DNA from: Candidatus Saccharimonadota bacterium
GTDB taxonomy: Bacteria > Patescibacteriota > Saccharimonadia > Saccharimonadales > Saccharimonadaceae
Direction: 5' to 3'
NCBI GenBank assembly: GCA_016700015.1
Contig: CP064995.1
Location: 1-32,000 of the forward strand
DNA length: 32,000 nt
Below the pieces are notes generated by a model. The model saw nothing but the letters and a program-made list of their open reading frames with translations, was not told where the DNA came from and did not search any database. Below, in pieces: positions 6,095 to 31,947 of this stretch. Both the position numbers and the translations under genes were made by a program. Positions within the stretch are counted from its first letter, which is position 1, and each line of letters begins with the position of its first letter.

Positions 6095-7783
6095 TTAGGC
6101 CTTTAGTGCTTGCCGGCCGATAGTGATGAGATGTTTGTCACGGTAGTTCGCGAGCGCTTCATGGTCGATACCGTGGCGCTTAATGAAGCTGCTGACACGC
6201 TCGCTCCCAATGTAATGCGGTAGGCTGACGTAGCTCGCACCGTGTTCATAAAGTAGTGCCGCCTCGGTGTAGTTATTGGCGTGGCAGATGAAACTGCTTT
6301 TTTGGTTGTGACGACGAATGTACTGGAGTAGCATACGATTGGTCTCGACGTCGGTCATGGTGCTAACGACCAGCTGCGCTTTGCCGGCATTGATTTCGTC
6401 GAGAAACTCGTCGTCAGTGGCATCGCCATAAGCATGACGAATGCCCTGTTCTTCGAGTGTCTCGATAATTTCAGGATCATAGTCGACTACCAGGTATTTT
6501 TGATTCATATCACGAAATGTATTCAGGAATTCATGTCCGCCTTTGTGATAGCCGACGAGAATAACTGGGTAATAGACAGCACGGCGCGCTGGCTCATGTG
6601 CCGTGGATCGTTCGAAATGCCGCAACGGTTTCTCGAATACTTTGTAGAGTTTGTCCGCATGTTTCATGAGGTACGATGACACACCGATAGTGATGAATGC
6701 AGTTAAGGTGATCAGGGCTACGGCATCCTGTGAGATGAGCTGCTTGCTGGCTGCGATGGTGATAAATATAATCGAGAACTCGCTGATTTGTGAAAGATGA
6801 AGCGCAGTCTTAAAGCTGGTAAGTTTCGTATAGCGCTGGATACCGAGACTAAGCATCACGAGTATTGGCTTGCCGACAATCACAACAGCGGCTAGTACGT
6901 GCGCCGCCAACAGGTTTTTGCCGATGCTGTCGAGTGTGAATGATTCGCCGAGAGTGACAAAAAAGATTACGATGAAGAAATCGCGCAACGGTTTGAGTTT
7001 GGCGGCCATCTCAGTTGCATAGGGAAGTCCGGCCAGCGACACGCCAGCAAATAGCGCTCCGACTTCATGGCTAAAACCAGCGATGTCGAACAGTGTCGCG
7101 ACCGCTAGGCCCCAACTGAGAGAGAATAAAAATAGTAGCTCTTGGCTCTTGGCGGCAAAACGTGCGATGTGCGGCATAAGGTAGCGACCTGCGATAAATA
7201 GACCGACACCTAGTGCCAACGCCTTGAAGAGAATCTGCCATCCTTCAGTCGCTCCGCTGCCAGGTGACGCCATCATGGCCAGTATCACCACGGCACTGGT
7301 CGCGACGACATCTTCAATCAGTAGCACACCTAGCGTAATCTGTCCGAATAGTCGAGTCGTTTGCTTGGCATCAGATAGTGTTTTGAGCACAATAATTGTA
7401 CTGCTGAAGAACAAGGCCATTGCCATGATAATGCTCTTTTGGAGGTCAAATCCAAGCAGCCAGCAGGCGCCAAATGATAATAATCCAAGGAAGGGTAGGA
7501 TTGACATGCTTGTTATGATAGACACACGCCCGAGACTTTTGACCACACCGGCATTGAGACCGAGACCGATGATAAACAACAGAAGTGTGATGCCGATCGA
7601 ACTGAACGAGTCAAATGCTGATTGGTTACGCGTAATATGGAAAAAGCTGAAGCTCGGACCGACCAGCACGCCCGTTATGATGTAGCCCATAATAAGTGGC
7701 TGGCGAAGCAGCTTCATAATCGCAGACACGAGCACCACAATCGTGACGACAACGGCGAGCTCGGTAAAAATTGATGCATGCAT
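6095..7783 (-). CDS. CPA2 cation:proton antiporter with C-terminal RCK/TrkA-N domain (Kef-type)
   Basis: An approximately 12-TM Na+/H+-exchanger-like N-terminal part is followed by a Rossmann-like C-terminal domain (VILVGYHKGGHEF...VVDYD). AAGGA lies upstream of ATG 7783. Confidence 0.85.
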   Translation of the reverse strand: MHASIFTELAVVVTIVVLVSAIMKLLRQPLIMGYIITGVLVGPSFSFFHITRNQSAFDSFSSIGITLLLFIIGLGLNAGVVKSLGRVSIITSMSILPFLGLLSFGACWLLGFDLQKSIIMAMALFFSSTIIVLKTLSDAKQTTRLFGQITLGVLLIEDVVATSAVVILAMMASPGSGATEGWQILFKALALGVGLFIAGRYLMPHIARFAAKSQELLFLFSLSWGLAVATLFDIAGFSHEVGALFAGVSLAGLPYATEMAAKLKPLRDFFIVIFFVTLGESFTLDSIGKNLLAAHVLAAVVIVGKPILVMLSLGIQRYTKLTSFKTALHLSQISEFSIIFITIAASKQLISQDAVALITLTAFITIGVSSYLMKHADKLYKVFEKPLRHFERSTAHEPARRAVYYPVILVGYHKGGHEFLNTFRDMNQKYLVVDYDPEIIETLEEQGIRHAYGDATDDEFLDEINAGKAQLVVSTMTDVETNRMLLQYIRRHNQKSSFICHANNYTEAALLYEHGASYVSLPHYIGSERVSSFIKRHGIDHEALANYRDKHLITIGRQALKA

Positions 7784-18997: not shown

Positions 18998-19075
<78 letters not shown>

Positions 19076-19080
19076 TAGAA

Positions 19081-19116
19081 AAATGCCGTGCCCTTTATGG
19101 GCAGGGCATTTTTCTT
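19081..19116 (+). terminator. intrinsic terminator after tRNA-fMet
   Basis: AAATGCCGTGCCC/GGGCAGGGCATTT stem (one G-G mismatch), loop TTTAT, followed by a T-run. Confidence 0.65.
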
Positions 19117-19123
19117 TAGGTTA

Positions 19124-19147
19124 TGCGGTGGCAGGATTTGGTTCTGC
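19124..19147 (-). repeat. inverted, degenerate copy of the tRNA-fMet T-arm/3' acceptor segment
   Basis: The rc reads GCAGAACCAAATCCTGCCACCGCA, versus GCAGGTTCAAATCCTGCCCCCGCA in the tRNA (19046-19069). Confidence 0.7.
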
Positions 19148-19251
19148 GACAGCACGCGAAGCGTGCGTAGTCGCTGGTTCGTGTAGCGCAGTGAAATTCT
19201 GGAAGAGCTTGCTCTTGCCAGAATAAGCAAGCGGAAGAGGCTTTAGCCGAT

Positions 19252-19265
19252 AATCCTGCCCCCGC
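19252..19265 (+). repeat. exact 14-nt direct repeat of the tRNA-fMet 3' end (AATCCTGCCCCCGC)
   Basis: Identical to 19057-19070, which lies inside the tRNA gene. Confidence 0.85.
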
Positions 19266-26188: not shown

Positions 26189-26265
26189 TGGTAGCAGCGA
26201 CAGGGAACGATCCTGTGACCTTAGGCTTATGAGTCCTACGCTCTAACCAACTGAGCTACGCTGCC
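26189..26265 (-). tRNA. tRNA with anticodon CAT (elongator-Met-like), non-canonical T loop
   Basis: 77 nt: GGCAGCGTAGCTCAGTTGGTTAGAGCG-TAGGA-CTCATAA-GCCTA-AGGTC-ACAGG-ATCGTTC-CCTGT-CGCTGCT-ACCA. The 5' half resembles E. coli elongator tRNA-Met. Oddities are listed in the findings. Confidence 0.75.
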
Positions 26266-26315
26266 TTATATAACCGAACAGGTGCGCGAAGAGTCTCGCT
26301 TCGTTTTGGTAATCT

Positions 26316-26332
26316 GCAGTTGGTTAGAGCGC
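26316..26332 (+). repeat. inverted copy of the D-arm segment of the adjacent tRNA
   Basis: The rc of 26318-26332 (CGCTCTAACCAACTG) is identical to 26239-26253 inside the tRNA gene. Confidence 0.75.
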
Positions 26333-29498: not shown

Positions 29499-29507
29499 TG
29501 CTATAAT
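29499..29507 (+). promoter_or_regulatory. extended -10 promoter element (TGcTATAAT) for the polymerase locus
   Basis: TG at 29499-29500 and TATAAT at 29502-29507. It is the only promoter-like element I can see upstream of 29673-31947. Confidence 0.45.
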
Positions 29508-29672
29508 AATACGTACTTCCAGGTGATACTCACTGTTCGCCAGCTGGCGGATAAGCGTCCCTCGCCATAGGATCATCAGTTGTCTACGGACGAATCGCTA
29601 GAAACGGGCGAGGGGACGGGCAACACATTTCAACCAACGTTTCTCTGACAACCTAATCGGAGATAATTTGAA

Positions 29673-29822
29673 ATGAACGATGAATCGGTACTACCTGTGT
29701 TCTATATTGAAACGCCACGCACTTCGGGGCGGCTGGAAAAAATCGATGTATTGCTCGAAAAGCGTATGCGCGAGTTTTTGCTCATGAGGCGCCAAAAGGT
29801 CTGGCGCAAAGCGACGGACTAG
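29673..29822 (+). CDS. candidate small ORF (49 aa)
   Basis: MNDESVLPVFYIETPRTSGRLEKIDVLLEKRMREFLLMRRQKVWRKATD. GGAG lies 10 nt upstream, and the stop is 1 nt before the next ATG. Confidence 0.3.
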   Translation: MNDESVLPVFYIETPRTSGRLEKIDVLLEKRMREFLLMRRQKVWRKATD

Positions 29823-29823
29823 C

Positions 29824-30090
29824 ATGGATAGCGAAATCATGCTTGATGAGCGGGTACAGGTAGTAGCAGTATTTAGTACTGGGCTGCATCCGTGCCAGCC
29901 GGTACGATTTCGGCGCAGCAGCGGCAGGGAAGTGACGATTACCGAGATTGGCCTGTGTCACCCTACAGTACACGGCCGACGAACCGTCCATGTGTTCGAT
30001 GTGACGGATGGCGGTGCTGACTACCGACTGGTGTTTGATACTGAGCGGCTGACGTGGACGCTTGTTATGGAGGCGGATCATGGCAATTAA
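29824..30090 (+). CDS. hypothetical protein (88 aa) upstream of the Y-family polymerase
   Basis: Track ORF with an ATG start immediately after the 49-aa ORF. No family recognised. Confidence 0.45.
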   Translation: MDSEIMLDERVQVVAVFSTGLHPCQPVRFRRSSGREVTITEIGLCHPTVHGRRTVHVFDVTDGGADYRLVFDTERLTWTLVMEADHGN

Positions 30091-30663
30091 TCCTTTCTTT
30101 TCTTTATTCTTGAAAAGAAACAAAAGAAACGACATCCTTTTGTGCGACAAAAGGATGCAAAAACATGGGGGTAGGCTTCGGTCCGCGGTGAGTTTCGCGC
30201 TCAAAGTATCCGGTTGCCTGCGGAACTCGCGCCAACAGACGCCACTGTTGGGCTCAAACAGTCCTCGGCAAGCCGTATACTTTTCCCACTCTACTCCCGG
30301 GGCCTGCAGATTACCCCCATACCCCCAGCCATATGTGCGGCTTTGCCGCAATCATATCATGAACCATGCGGTGCATGGTTCATGTGGGTCCAGGGAGCCA
30401 GCTGGCCCAAGAATGAAATCAGCAAGCTCATGGAATCATTCACGAAACTTTGTCCGCAACCAACAATATCGACATTGTTGCGGACCGATCCCTTCAGGGT
30501 CGTTGTTTCGTGACTATGAGCTTGCCGATTTCATACATGGCGCCAGGCGGATATCCTTGGTCGTGTTTGCTTCTTTGCTCGAAACAAAGAAGAGTTTTGC
30601 TCCTTTTGCTTCAAAAGGAGTCGTTTTTTGCTTCTTTAGCGAAATAAAAAGAAGGAGATTTTT
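30091..30663 (+). ncRNA. candidate large structured RNA / cis-regulatory leader (unassigned family)
   Basis: More than a dozen nested helices, including perfect 11- and 12-bp stems and an 18/19 long-range helix. It is stop-free in several frames on both strands. A terminator-like hairpin with a T-run lies at 30600-30629. The strand is inferred from the flanking genes only. Confidence 0.45.
30600..30629 (+). terminator. terminator-like hairpin inside the leader, 35 nt upstream of the polymerase start
   Basis: CTCCTTTTG (30600-30608) / CAAAAGGAG (30612-30620), followed by TCGTTTTTT. Confidence 0.5.
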
Positions 30664-31947
30664 GTGTTGATAAAACACAATTATAATCCAAATCGGCCGC
30701 TGGTGATGCATATCGACCTCAATAGCTGTTTTGCCACAGTCGAGCAGCAGGCCAGGCCGCTTCTGCGCGGTCGTCCAGTAGCGATCGTCAACCGCCGCAC
30801 CGAGCATACCATGATTGTCACCTGTAGCTACGAGGCTAAGGCTATGGGTGTCAAGCTTGGCATGCGCCTGCGTGATGCTAAGAAGCTGTGTCCCGACCTG
30901 ATCGGGCTCGAGAGCGATCCGCCCAAGTATCGGTACGTGTATCACAAGATGATGGCTATCATGCGTGATTACAGCCCAAGCTTTACGATGAAGAGTATCG
31001 ATGAGGGGGTGATTGACTTTGCCCAGGCACCGGCCAGTATGCGTGACCGCGATATGGTAGAAATTGCCAAAGAGATCAAGGGTCGTCTGCTAGGCGAAAT
31101 CGGTTGCTGGATGCGCTGCAACATTGGTATCGCACCAAACCGCTTCTTGGCTAAAACTGCTGCTGGGCTGAACAAACCTGACGGCCTGACAGTGATTAGT
31201 CACGAGAATTTGCGCGAAGTACTAGGTAAGATGGAGCTGCAAGATCTCACGGGCATCGCCGCGCGCAATGAACATCGACTCAATATGGTGGGGATTTATA
31301 CGCCACTGCAGTTTATTGATGCCGACCCGCAAATTCTACAAAAAGTGGTATTTAAGAGCATCTGTGGTTTGCAGTGGCATCAGCGTTTGCGGGGGTGGGA
31401 AGTTGACGATGTGAGTTATGACCTGAAAACTTGTGGGCGGCAGTACGTGCTTGAGAGCCGAGATCTGACGAAACAACAGGTGGCGCAGCGATTGCATCAT
31501 TTGGTCGAATCGGTGGGTGCCAAGCTGCGGAGTCAGGGTAAATGCGCGCGGGGTGTTGGCGTGTATGTACGGTTTTATGGTGCTGAAGGACTGGCTGAGA
31601 CAAACGGACGATGGGGAAGAAAGGGAAGCTATTGGCACGGCAAATACCTCGCTCCCCTGCCCTTTTACTCTGATACAGCGATTTGGGCGATTGCCAGCCA
31701 ACTGTTTCGTCATGCTCCGCCTGGCAGTATGCGCGAAATCGGTATTCATGTGTACCATTTACACGATGACTCTGGCGACCAGCTAAGTTTATTTGGCGAT
31801 GAGCTCGCGAAAGAACAGCACGTCGTATGGGCGATTGATGAGATTAATGCTCGCTACGGTGAACGCACCATTCACAGTGCCGACACATTGGGAACTGGCC
31901 ATTTCGTGAAACAAAAAATCCCCTTTGGCAGTACCCGCTATTTATAG
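30664..31947 (+). CDS. Y-family DNA polymerase (UmuC/ImpB/DinB superfamily)
   Basis: VMHIDLNSCFATVEQ (first catalytic Asp and steric-gate region, with the D-x-N found in UmuC), SYEAKAMGVKLGM, AKKLCPDL and SIDEGVIDF (catalytic D-E). GTG start with GAAGGAG 6 nt upstream. Confidence 0.9.
   Translation: MLIKHNYNPNRPLVMHIDLNSCFATVEQQARPLLRGRPVAIVNRRTEHTMIVTCSYEAKAMGVKLGMRLRDAKKLCPDLIGLESDPPKYRYVYHKMMAIMRDYSPSFTMKSIDEGVIDFAQAPASMRDRDMVEIAKEIKGRLLGEIGCWMRCNIGIAPNRFLAKTAAGLNKPDGLTVISHENLREVLGKMELQDLTGIAARNEHRLNMVGIYTPLQFIDADPQILQKVVFKSICGLQWHQRLRGWEVDDVSYDLKTCGRQYVLESRDLTKQQVAQRLHHLVESVGAKLRSQGKCARGVGVYVRFYGAEGLAETNGRWGRKGSYWHGKYLAPLPFYSDTAIWAIASQLFRHAPPGSMREIGIHVYHLHDDSGDQLSLFGDELAKEQHVVWAIDEINARYGERTIHSADTLGTGHFVKQKIPFGSTRYL

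Follow-up and report, generated by a model that had tools for sequence, protein, structure and literature searches.

A nested palindromic element at the start of a Y-family DNA polymerase gene in Saccharibacteria and the reading frame that may bridge it

What is the 573-nt sequence that lies between a gene for an 88-aa protein and the Y-family DNA polymerase gene downstream of it in a Candidatus Saccharimonadota bacterium? The sequence (30091–30663) is part of a 32,000-nt stretch, here called the window, that comprises positions 1–32,000 of the forward strand of contig CP064995.1 (assembly GCA_016700015.1). An original prediction had described it as hairpin-dense and apparently non-coding, possibly a structured RNA coupled to the polymerase. 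We favor, with a confidence a little better than even (roughly 0.55), a model in which it is a composite, nested palindromic DNA insertion at the polymerase start codon that is tolerated by virtue of a translational-coupling relay through a bridging open reading frame.

The two flanking genes are constant partners. The 88-aa protein has more than 200 homologues with 66–95% identity, and a Y-family polymerase gene lies directly downstream in all of its 276 genome and 426 metagenome relatives; no match to the protein was found in Pfam, NCBIfam or the PDB. The polymerase matches the Pfam families IMS (2.5e-36) and IMS_C (1.9e-11) and, below their cut-offs, NCBIfam models of the Pol IV/UmuC type, and orthologues were found in all loci compared. 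Since the 88-aa and polymerase genes overlap by 4–17 nt, without any spacer, at 124 of 153 related Saccharibacteria loci, this comparison of sequences indicates that the 573 nt is an insertion splitting two operon genes that normally overlap. In the closest sister lineage (L104–106) the site is empty and the genes meet in an ATGA overlap, and the polymerase start in the window lies 573 nt downstream of its ancestral position. The last codons of the 88-aa gene (E-A-D-H) contain an embedded GGAGG Shine-Dalgarno sequence (30069–30073) for the next cistron.

The exceptional density of hairpins claimed for this region was borne out. All 15 helices that had been listed are present where they were placed. 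Twelve of them pair without gaps and are perfect or have one G-T or one mismatch, including the long-range helix 30413–30431/30516–30534 (18 of 19 pairs), and the helices at 30331–30357 and 30386–30408 need a bulge, as had been said. Many stems close on loops of 0–3 nt. The + strand of 30091–30663 folds at -246.6 kcal/mol (RNAfold), compared with -165.7 ± 6.9 for dinucleotide shuffles (z = -11.8), and the - strand at -259.7 (z = -13.0); none of 100 shuffles folded as well. The G+C-richer core with A/T-rich hairpin modules on either side is also real. In line with the original prediction, a search with Rfam 15 recognised no tmRNA, RNase P RNA, 6S RNA, T-box or group II intron here: only three tRNAs in the window reached gathering score, and no family did so in the 573-nt region, including group I introns, HEARO, OLE, GOLLD and ROOL. 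At E ≤ 10, positions 29500–30900 gave four weak, irrelevant matches (15–20 bits against cut-offs of 35–55), and eight related loci at E ≤ 1 gave tRNAs only.

Table 1. Coordinates of the features at the insertion locus, in window positions.
Feature	Position	Strand	Details	Basis
88-aa gene	29824–30090	+	conserved upstream partner of the polymerase gene	homologue searches
Bridging ORF	30080–30670	+	196 aa; ATG 30080, TGA 30668–30670	ORF list, public gene calls
Left A/T-rich hairpin array	30091–30163	.	left terminal inverted repeat of the composite; hairpins 30094–30102/30112–30120 and 30133–30143/30147–30157	repeat search, fold
Domain A	30165–30320	+	expanded form of the small hairpin found at the junction; outer stem 30165–30173/30312–30320; conserved core halves GGCTTCGGTCCGC (30174–30186) and CTGCAGAT (30304–30311); branched interior with helices 30190–30198/30220–30228 and 30232–30238/30245–30251	core pattern, family alignment, covariation, model
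Two neighbouring hairpins	30321–30384	.	30331–30341/30345–30357 (bulge); 30358–30369/30373–30384 (perfect 12 bp, 3-nt loop)	
Domain B	30386–30561	.	stacked-helix rod with a three-way junction at its end	alignments, RNAalifold
Right A/T-rich array	30566–30660	+	right terminal inverted repeat; three tandem units of about 31 nt: 30570–30577/30585–30592, 30600–30608/30612–30620, 30631–30637/30648–30654	repeat family, spacing 30–31 nt
Y-family DNA polymerase gene	30664–31947	+	427 aa; GTG start	Pfam IMS, IMS_C

The element is built from separable parts (Table 1), with A/T-rich hairpin arrays as terminal inverted repeats around domains A and B. Its ends, TCCTTTCTTTTCTTTATT and AAATAAAAAGAAGGAGA, together with the arrays, are inverted copies of each other, and the two ends pair in the minimum free energy (MFE) fold. 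On the - strand, 30158–30132 and the T-run that follows resemble an intrinsic terminator; at the right end each unit is followed by a T-run, making that array terminator-like on the + strand, and its last unit partly sequesters the polymerase Shine-Dalgarno sequence AAGGAG (30652–30657). The core pattern of domain A occurs once in the window, with zero occurrences expected by chance, and the domain is present in L072 and L136. Both L072 and L019 carry equivalents, of different sequence, of the two hairpins that follow it. Domain B has kept its length without indels in L072 and L019. Its unpaired blocks GGGAGCC, TGGAATCATTC, CGATCCCTTYAGGGTCG and GGATATCC are conserved, and the helices between them differ in sequence while their pairing is kept; by hand count in the aligned sequences the spacing between blocks is invariant at 31, 44 and 46 nt.

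Running through all of these parts is a complete reading frame. The ATG of the bridging ORF occupies the ancestral polymerase start position, with the GGAGG 6 nt upstream. The ORF shares 11 nt with the end of the 88-aa gene (stop codon 30088–30090) and 7 nt, at its TGA, with the start of the polymerase gene (GTG, 30664), and gene callers list it in public records as a product of 196 aa. The earlier view that no convincing gene lies here was therefore right in that the product is not a conserved protein and wrong in that an intact ORF with an ATG and a Shine-Dalgarno sequence spans 30080–30670. In 5.8 billion clusters the 196-aa sequence matched nothing beyond its own entry and a strain variant with 86% identity, and phmmer against 1.84 billion representatives returned its own entry alone. 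It matched no Pfam or NCBIfam family; copies of the element sought through their mis-called ORF proteins came from the same species group only.

Could this ORF nevertheless be a genuine gene for a basic protein, a third member of the operon with incidental hairpins? We consider this scarcely credible. Its ATG, good Shine-Dalgarno sequence, overlap with both neighbours and prediction by gene callers are those of a gene, and in L101 the frame stays open despite an insert of 84 nt. However, the protein is an orphan outside its species group, with no homologue found that shares its amino-acid sequence in this frame. In L072 and L019 the homologous DNA is read on the opposite strand and the frame equivalent to that of the window is broken. 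In the small hairpin family described below, conserved nucleotides are read in varying frames, with L027 and L148 differing from the rest. The 196-aa product is rich in Cys, Arg, Ser and His, and a coding sequence would not be expected to fold with a z of -12. The public "hypothetical protein" of 196 aa is, in our view, an artefact of a translational relay.

What recurs is the bridge rather than the peptide. A bridging ORF is present in 20 of the 20 lineages with a separate insert (11 from genomes and 9 from metagenomes). Counted from the end of the 88-aa stop codon, these ORFs start at -3 to -16, and they run 3–13 nt beyond the first base of the codon that starts the polymerase, with two exceptions: in L044 the stop directly abuts the start, and in L186 it lies at +28. 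The chance of such a stop-free frame is 0.0015 in the window, 0.0004 in L072, 0.0036 in L019 and 0.01–0.26 in the smaller inserts. The several stop-free ORFs reported on both strands are real, but they had been put down to composition or structure, and that explanation does not hold for the linking frame: in every lineage it is exactly the operon-sense frame joining the two genes that is open. In L072 and L019 the bridging ORF uses the other DNA strand of the shared element, and the corresponding frames in the window contain 3–9 stops. Judged from these sequence features, the bridging ORF is probably translated. A group I or II intron and a translational bypass were rejected: the orientation flips, the Rfam result is negative, and a frame that is open throughout and ends in a stop of its own where the polymerase begins points to ordinary translation.

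The orientation of the element differs among species. Compared with the window, it is reversed in L072 (611 nt aligned, 67% identity) and in L019 (349 nt aligned); the eight contigs from the window's species and two strain relatives (L001, L003, L004, L101–103, L107 and L108) all show a single orientation. The full element is confined to one small clade. The idea of a conserved RNA linked to the polymerase is not supported: L072 and L019 carry the element inverted with respect to this gene, and most loci lack it. Both orientations among species, together with terminal inverted repeats, a purine-rich Shine-Dalgarno-like arm that each end would place beside the polymerase start and reports that Correia elements invert (PMC10969869), raise the prospect of an invertible DNA switch, in which the segment between the terminal arrays flips and alters polymerase expression. 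We regard such a switch as very improbable: the orientation is uniform within the species group, there is no promoter inside and no recombinase domain in the neighbouring genes, and a flipped window element would lack an open bridging frame.

The helices themselves are maintained. In a comparison of the core of the large element (the BIG core) across three lineages, the window, L072 and L019, RNAalifold gave 113 pairs, of which 42 are changed on both sides against 15 expected; none of 500 shuffles scored as high, slid controls reached at most 9, and 91.7% of cells are paired compared with 80.5% in shuffles. The covariation that had been proposed as a check is thus present, with compensatory changes in both other lineages carrying the element, and it favors neither strand. 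Which strand forms the helices is less evident. Counts of G.U on the + and - strands are 10 versus 6 (intersection) and 32 versus 17 (union) in the BIG core, and 12 versus 23 and 27 versus 26 in the small family; the strand that is more stable by MFE varies among lineages. Assigning a strand by MFE or by G.U/A.C counts gave inconsistent results and was abandoned. The G.U and A.C counts show no clear strand preference and therefore suggest a palindrome kept at the level of DNA rather than an RNA-specific fold. Conserved unpaired blocks, an invariant core and covarying stems are nonetheless the pattern of functional RNAs and count against the DNA-insertion reading, and a function at the RNA level is possible.

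One such function would be that of an independent structured RNA gene, whose product acts in trans as an ncRNA or is a mobile RNA of the ribozyme or guide type. It would be bounded at both ends by its own terminators and would lie between the two genes by chance or by homing. The outward-facing terminator-like hairpins, the conserved blocks with their length-invariant spacing and covarying helices, and an orientation independent of the host operon are what an autonomous gene would have, and without an Rfam match it would be new. Yet no sigma-70-like promoter was found in the element on either strand, neither strand is consistently more stable, no associated protein gene travels along, and the build is modular (L019 lacks domain A, L136 lacks domain B and L101 has the additional 84 nt). 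An RNA gene would also have no need of an operon-sense frame purged of stops in each orientation. We therefore judge this alternative improbable.

Domain A is an expanded form of a smaller hairpin found at the same junction in other lineages. Members of this family share the layout outer stem – ACGGCTTCGCGCCGC – inner hairpin – CTCGGGCTGCAGATG – outer stem, with an invariant core. A loose regular expression for the core motif was too noisy, and a covariance model was used instead; 14 of its 15 matches in about 1 Mb of related loci fall at this junction, always on the sense strand. Pairing is kept in 86% of cases compared with 65% in shuffles, the covariation score is 0.58 compared with 0.20, and 27 of 34 pairs have compensatory changes. 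The suspected tie to the polymerase thus stands where the family is present, and fails as a rule for the operon, given the loci without a spacer, the sister lineage among them.

These properties give substance to a possible, though unlikely, alternative in which the region is a cis-acting RNA in the operon transcript that regulates the translesion polymerase, either as an attenuator or by offering a site to RNase III or a binding protein and so fixing the proportion of 88-aa protein to polymerase. In the attenuator version, polymerase expression would depend on how closely translation of the bridging ORF trails transcription. The junction-bound, sense-only distribution of the small family and its invariant core flanked by hypervariable covarying stems are as expected of such an RNA, as are the three hairpin and T-run units directly before the polymerase start, one of them over the Shine-Dalgarno sequence. 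UUCG-type and GCGA loops occur in the window's + orientation, and the element is much less diverged than its flanks. The same RNA would, however, be lacking in about 80% of the species with the same operon, with empty sites in close relatives scattered over at least seven clades. The operon transcripts of L072 and L019 carry the complement of the large element, G.U does not outnumber A.C on the sense strand, and the antisense strand gives the more stable fold of the small family (-36.0 versus -28.7).

Returning to the insertion model, the pattern of divergence bears on how the element moves. Compared with two strains the element has 0 and 5 substitutions in 573 nt, beside flanking genes that differ by 2–9%, mostly at third codon positions; beyond the element, identity continues for about 30 nt and 85 nt of flanking sequence. 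This could reflect recent spread or, alternatively, strong constraint, with divergence 10–17-fold below that of synonymous sites. No target-site duplication was detected across 20 insert-bearing loci, where the similarity of left and right flanks was 6.25 compared with 5.83 ± 1.41 between mismatched loci; an apparent 10–16-nt repeat, CAATTAATCC / CAATTATAATCC, was rejected as a duplication, being no better than the similarity of start regions between loci. Neither the rest of the 32-kb window nor the sequence flanking the element in L072 and L019 contains another copy. The dispersed copies away from polymerase genes that would have spoken against the original prediction were not seen in about 1 Mb of related loci, save for one copy of the small family in L044. 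Genes within 10 kb encode no transposase domain. The most conserved 17-mer had 16 matches in viral contigs, all attributable to chance and none extending beyond the 17-mer; the small-family core pattern had no match in viral contigs, a two-block pattern had none in metagenomes, and BLASTN against phage and plasmid collections returned nothing relevant.

How could such an element persist between two coupled genes? We envision that ribosomes finishing the 88-aa gene, or binding the Shine-Dalgarno sequence embedded in it, would translate the bridging ORF and in doing so open up its hairpins, among them the terminator-like units and the one over the polymerase Shine-Dalgarno sequence. They would then terminate on top of the polymerase start, restoring translational coupling, and the encoded peptide would be irrelevant. 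The palindromes may be kept by a need for them at the DNA level in the spread or retention of the element, or by palindrome-correcting replication errors. Site-specific insertion and homologous recombination through the conserved flanks are candidate routes of arrival. The site fidelity of the family and the constant sense orientation of its small members also fit a function tied to the polymerase. We raise, as a speculative extension, that the small hairpin and its expanded form in the window are an undescribed functional element, or a single-site "homing" palindrome, at the translesion-polymerase start in Saccharibacteria. A functional element could control synthesis of the error-prone polymerase, as an attenuator that depends on translation or as a processing site; a homing palindrome could spread between strains by some sequence-specific mechanism. 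Either would make the bridging ORF an obligatory part of the design.

Among known repeats, Rickettsia palindromic elements (RPEs) resemble the arrangement in that selfish palindromic inserts survive within translated sequence by means of an open frame. RPEs are about 150 bp long, occur in many unrelated genes and become an in-frame part of the host protein, whereas the frame here forms a cistron of its own, in a different phase from the polymerase, at a constant site. The precedent for the proposed relay is provided by mycobacterial interspersed repetitive units (MIRUs), start-codon inserts whose internal ORF is coupled to the gene that follows, in units of 46–101 bp that are often tandem and occur at dozens of loci per genome (PMC12548453, citing Supply et al. 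1997). The two share insertion at a start codon within an operon and a same-direction internal ORF overlapping the neighbours' stop and start, and in both downstream expression would be little disturbed and the ORF product beside the point. They differ in that MIRUs are not strongly palindromic, whereas the present element is a 573-nt nested palindrome, single-copy as far as seen, at one junction across many species; its only tandem part is the set of three units of about 31 nt at the right end.

MITEs nest, invert and carry terminator-like hairpins (PMC10969869). Like MITE-type repeats (Correia, BOX, ERIC and SPRITE), our element is small and of non-coding origin, with terminal inverted repeats and long transcript hairpins, and is modular or nested (as in BOX A-B-C), with terminator-like hairpins (SPRITE), inversion (Correia) and, as in some of these repeats, an orphan ORF (PMC10969869). 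Unlike MITEs, it showed no target-site duplication, dispersed copies or cognate transposase in the searches described here; no partner transposase is known for it, and two defining MITE features are therefore missing. Typical MITEs also have conserved ends and a variable middle, whereas the small family has variable outer stems and an invariant inner core. With OLE, GOLLD, ROOL, HEARO/omega RNA and group I/II introns the element shares size (400–650 nt), nested helices and covariation, and several families of large RNAs are likewise associated with mobile DNA. It differs from these structured RNAs in having no Rfam match, flipping orientation, showing no strand-specific pairing signature and consisting of separable modules with no partner protein gene.

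These findings indicate how a large, strongly folded insert is accommodated in a very compact genome, even at the overlapping stop and start of coupled genes: a throw-away frame is kept open across it, and an inverted element has such a frame re-created on its other strand. The recurrence of this pattern in about 20 independent lineages is natural evidence that selection acts on the translational coupling of the Y-family polymerase to the 88-aa protein. To our knowledge, little is known about stress regulation in these organisms. The 196-aa entry in public records is a warning to annotators, and the junction-specific hairpin family with its invariant core is a testable candidate for regulation of a mutagenic polymerase or for a new mechanism of site-specific mobility.

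We favor, with a probability of roughly 55%, a model in which the 573 nt (hereafter the element) that separate the stop of an 88-aa ORF (30090) from the GTG start (30664) of a Y-family polymerase gene in this Saccharibacteria (candidate phyla radiation) genome represent a composite palindromic insertion accommodated by an open reading frame that provides translational coupling. The hairpin-rich structure in front of the polymerase gene is real and unusual. All 15 helices listed in the original prediction are present, the majority of them perfect, and the element folds to -246.6 kcal/mol on the plus strand and -259.7 kcal/mol on the minus strand by RNAfold, compared to about -166 to -170 ± 7 for dinucleotide shuffles (z = -11.8 and -13.0, respectively). 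It also matched no described RNA family: Rfam returned no match at gathering score and four weak, irrelevant matches at E <= 10, ruling out a known RNA family. The same polymerase gene, whose product contains Pfam IMS and IMS_C domains, lies in an identical gene order on a 44.6-kb ENA contig.

The comparison loci, 80 from species-representative genomes and 80 from metagenomes, were retrieved via the 88-aa protein, and 153 could be scored. Of these, 124 show a 4-17-nt overlap (ATGA and similar) between the 88-aa and polymerase genes, and the 88-aa gene's conserved E-A-D-H codons include the polymerase Shine-Dalgarno. The closest non-identical lineage (L104-106; 88-aa protein 84% identical) has the same gene order, an empty site and an ATGA overlap. 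Thus the 573 nt did not belong to the ancestral locus. In Saccharibacteria the 88-aa gene is an uncharacterised but highly conserved partner, always directly upstream of a Y-family polymerase gene with stop and start overlapping. Its product has more than 200 homologues (66-95% identity) and a predicted all-beta fold (AlphaFold pLDDT 74) but no Pfam, NCBIfam, PDB-sequence or Foldseek-PDB match; it may be an accessory subunit with a role comparable to UmuD or YolD. A 49-aa ORF located 1 nt further upstream (49-74% identity, kept only in closer relatives) may be an additional small operon member.

Coordinates of features in the window and in related Saccharibacteria loci (L-numbers)
Feature	Position	Strand	Remarks
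tRNA gene	18998-19075		anticodon CAT
Inverted partial copy of its 3' end	19124-19150
Direct copy of AATCCTGCCCCCGC	19252-19265
tRNA gene	26189-26265		anticodon CAT
Inverted 15-nt copy	26317-26331
49-aa ORF	29673-29822
88-aa gene	29824-30090	+
Bridging ORF	30080-30670	+	ATG; GGAGG Shine-Dalgarno 6 nt upstream, within last 88-aa gene codons
Element	30091-30663
Left end (A/T-rich hairpins)	30091-30163		scores as terminator on the minus strand
Domain A	30165-30320
Part common to three lineages	30321-30665
Domain B	30386-30561
Right end (A/T-rich hairpins)	30566-30660
Right units 1-2	30570-30592, 30599-30621	+	both score as intrinsic terminators
Right unit 3	30631-30654	+	followed by T-run; partly covers polymerase Shine-Dalgarno AAGGAG (30652-30657)
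Polymerase gene	30664-31947	+
84-nt insert, L101	~6234-6317		window equivalent ~30311
Contig break, L002	1		window 30643
Small-family copy, L044	105-199	-
Palindromic insert, L011	3393-3670
Palindromic insert, L118 and L121	3271-3548
Palindromic insert, L167 and L169	3268-3555
Degenerate repeats, L030	4262-4335
Degenerate repeats, L125	771-837

The original prediction saw no convincing gene between the 88-aa and polymerase genes, a claim that survives only in part. A complete ORF with an ATG and a Shine-Dalgarno (the bridging ORF) spans the element, its start overlapping the 88-aa stop and its stop the polymerase start, and public gene callers annotate this frame as a 196-aa protein; the product, however, is not a conserved protein. 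It has no family match and no homologue beyond its own species group among 5.8 billion clusters and in a full phmmer search over 1.84 billion representatives, and we reject the idea that the ORF encodes a conserved protein. In every lineage with a separate insert (11 genome and 9 further metagenome), an ORF begins at an ATG or GTG that overlaps the stop of the 88-aa gene. The starts lie at the ancestral polymerase start position, -3 to -16 from the end of this stop codon, and the ends 3-13 nt beyond base 1 of the polymerase start codon, except in L044, where the stop directly abuts the polymerase start, and L186, where it lies at +28. In dinucleotide shuffles, the probability of a stop-free frame by chance is 0.0015 for the window insert, 0.0004 and 0.0036 for those of two other species (L072 and L019) and 0.01-0.26 for smaller inserts; jointly it is negligible. 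L072 and L019 have their open frame on the other strand of the homologous element: the equivalent of the window ORF is broken, and the equivalents of their frames contain 3-9 stops in the window. An open frame on either strand, together with an orphan product, indicates that the frame is maintained open in situ regardless of its coding content. The open frame, not the peptide, is under selection. We reject an intron or bypass element, since the orientation is not constant and the frame is complete and translatable.

The two A/T-rich ends, one an inverted copy of the other, have hairpin arms that resemble Shine-Dalgarno and anti-Shine-Dalgarno sequences (CTCCTTTT / AAAAGGAG), and a purine-rich arm adjoins the polymerase start in either orientation of the element. 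No sigma-70-like promoter was found on either strand. We envision a scenario in which a ribosome on the bridging ORF would melt the end hairpins, so that polymerase output would depend on translation of this ORF. We interpret the open frame as a probable relay restoring translational coupling. The main rival is that the element has a polymerase-specific regulatory role, which we consider unlikely. We are somewhat more doubtful still that it serves the polymerase start as a dedicated functional element, be it a translation-dependent attenuator or a palindrome that homes to a single site, the two taken jointly.

The part common to the three lineages (window, L072 and L019) contains the conserved blocks GGGAGCC, TGGAATCATTC, CGATCCCTTYAGGGTCG and GGATATCC, with identical spacing of 31, 44 and 46 nt (a manual count in the alignment), and the helices between them differ in sequence and retain pairing. 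RNAalifold predicted 113 pairs, 42 of them changed on both sides, whereas slid controls had at most 9 double changes; 91.7% of cells were paired versus 80.5% in column shuffles, none of 500 as high. The result for the reverse strand was nearly identical, with 110 pairs, 42 compensatory (-115.5 versus -121.5 kcal/mol). Since an A.C on one strand is a G.U on the other, we compared the two over pairs predicted for both strands and found 10 G.U versus 6 A.C in the intersection and 32 versus 17 in the union. The strand with the lower MFE is not the same one across lineages. Neither these counts nor the MFE nor the reverse-strand fold provides positive evidence for one strand: compensatory changes maintain the helices, with no clear preference for either strand. 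In many stems the loop measures 0-3 nt. This pairing pattern looks like that of DNA-level palindromes and remains compatible with an RNA role.

Inserts of 100-290 nt are found at exactly this junction in many other loci. Thirteen have one invariant core in common (outer stem - ACGGCTTCGCGCCGC - inner hairpin - CTCGGGCTGCAGATG - outer stem) in which both stems are hypervariable and covarying. For this small family, RNAalifold predicted 34 pairs, 27 with double changes; 86.4% of cells were paired versus 65.4% in shuffles, and the covariation score was 0.58 versus 0.20 in shuffles and 0.11-0.18 in slid controls. The family shows no clear sense-strand bias (G.U versus A.C 12 versus 23 in the intersection, 27 versus 26 in the union) and folds slightly better on the antisense strand. 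In L027 and L148 the conserved nucleotides fall in a different reading frame from the other members, arguing that the peptide is not what is conserved. Carriers are spread over at least seven clades, with close relatives empty. Domain A contains the core halves around an expanded interior, a pattern that occurs only here in the window and is not expected there by chance, and L136 connects the small and expanded forms. A covariance model run over ~1.0 Mb of Saccharibacteria DNA identified 14 junction copies, each on the sense strand, and a single copy at another place. This sole off-junction copy (L044), intergenic, with an outer stem of ~29 bp and lacking a bridging ORF, shows that the small element can exist away from the junction. 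Five other loci have strongly palindromic junction inserts of 278-288 nt that are unrelated or only distantly related, each with a bridging ORF (L011 z = -9.4); the junction thus accumulates several kinds of palindromic DNA. In L030 and L125, degenerate short repeats (GGTAGC / AGGTAAC-like) in place of a palindromic insert lengthen the polymerase N-terminus in frame.

BLASTN against all retrieved DNA detected the large element in the same orientation as the window in strain-level relatives (L107 and L101-103). L101-103 carry an extra in-frame 84 nt; in L101 this stop-free insert in domain A extends the ORF from 196 to 224 aa and the frame stays open, showing continuing accretion under the open-frame constraint. 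L072 matches over 611 nt (67% identity), L019 has the domain B part and hairpin arrays without domain A, and L136 has the left hairpins and the beginning of domain A. Relative to the flanking genes, the element is inverted in L072 and L019. An invertible switch, in which the element would flip in place, is nevertheless unlikely: all eight species-group contigs have one orientation, the element contains no promoter-like site, and the neighbouring genes include no recombinase domain. One public contig of the same strain (L002) breaks within the last hairpin unit, consistent with assembly difficulty in repeated hairpin modules, with no sign of an alternative allele. Neighbour-joining of the flanking proteins places all large-element carriers in one small clade, together with L043/L153 and L104-106, whose sites are empty. 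The element may have been gained once, with later losses and an inversion, or twice at this site, in opposite orientations. Viral contigs, phage and plasmid collections, and a metagenome collection searched with a two-block pattern contained nothing similar.

Between the window and strain L107, the element has 0/573 substitutions, while the 88-aa and polymerase genes differ by 4.9% and 2.2%; the corresponding values for L101 are 5/573 (0.9%), 9.0% and 6.3%, with 65 of the 81 polymerase changes at third codon positions. The substitution-free tract runs ~30 nt to the left of the element and ~85 nt to the right. The low divergence fits recent between-strain transfer via recombination in conserved flanks, and also very strong constraint.

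Among known systems, the mycobacterial MIRU comes closest in function: according to a recent review, MIRUs insert at start codons and their internal ORF is then coupled to the downstream gene (PMC12548453). MITE-type repeats of bacteria, among them BOX, Correia and SPRITE, are reported to nest and invert and to carry terminator-like hairpins and orphan ORFs, and Rickettsia RPEs to maintain open frames through palindromic inserts (PMC10969869). The element differs from all of these in the size and depth of its palindrome, its adherence to one gene junction in many species, and its invariant core with variable stems. A classical MITE is not demonstrable: there is no target-site duplication above the background likeness of start regions, no dispersed copy in the available related DNA, and no transposase near the element.

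Elsewhere in the window, three tRNA genes, all with anticodon CAT, lie within 18998-19265 and 26189-26331. The first is followed by a terminator-like hairpin, then by the inverted partial copy of its 3' end and, beyond this, by the direct copy; an inverted copy likewise follows the tRNA at 26189. These tRNA-linked copies may mark past integration or recombination events at the tRNA genes.
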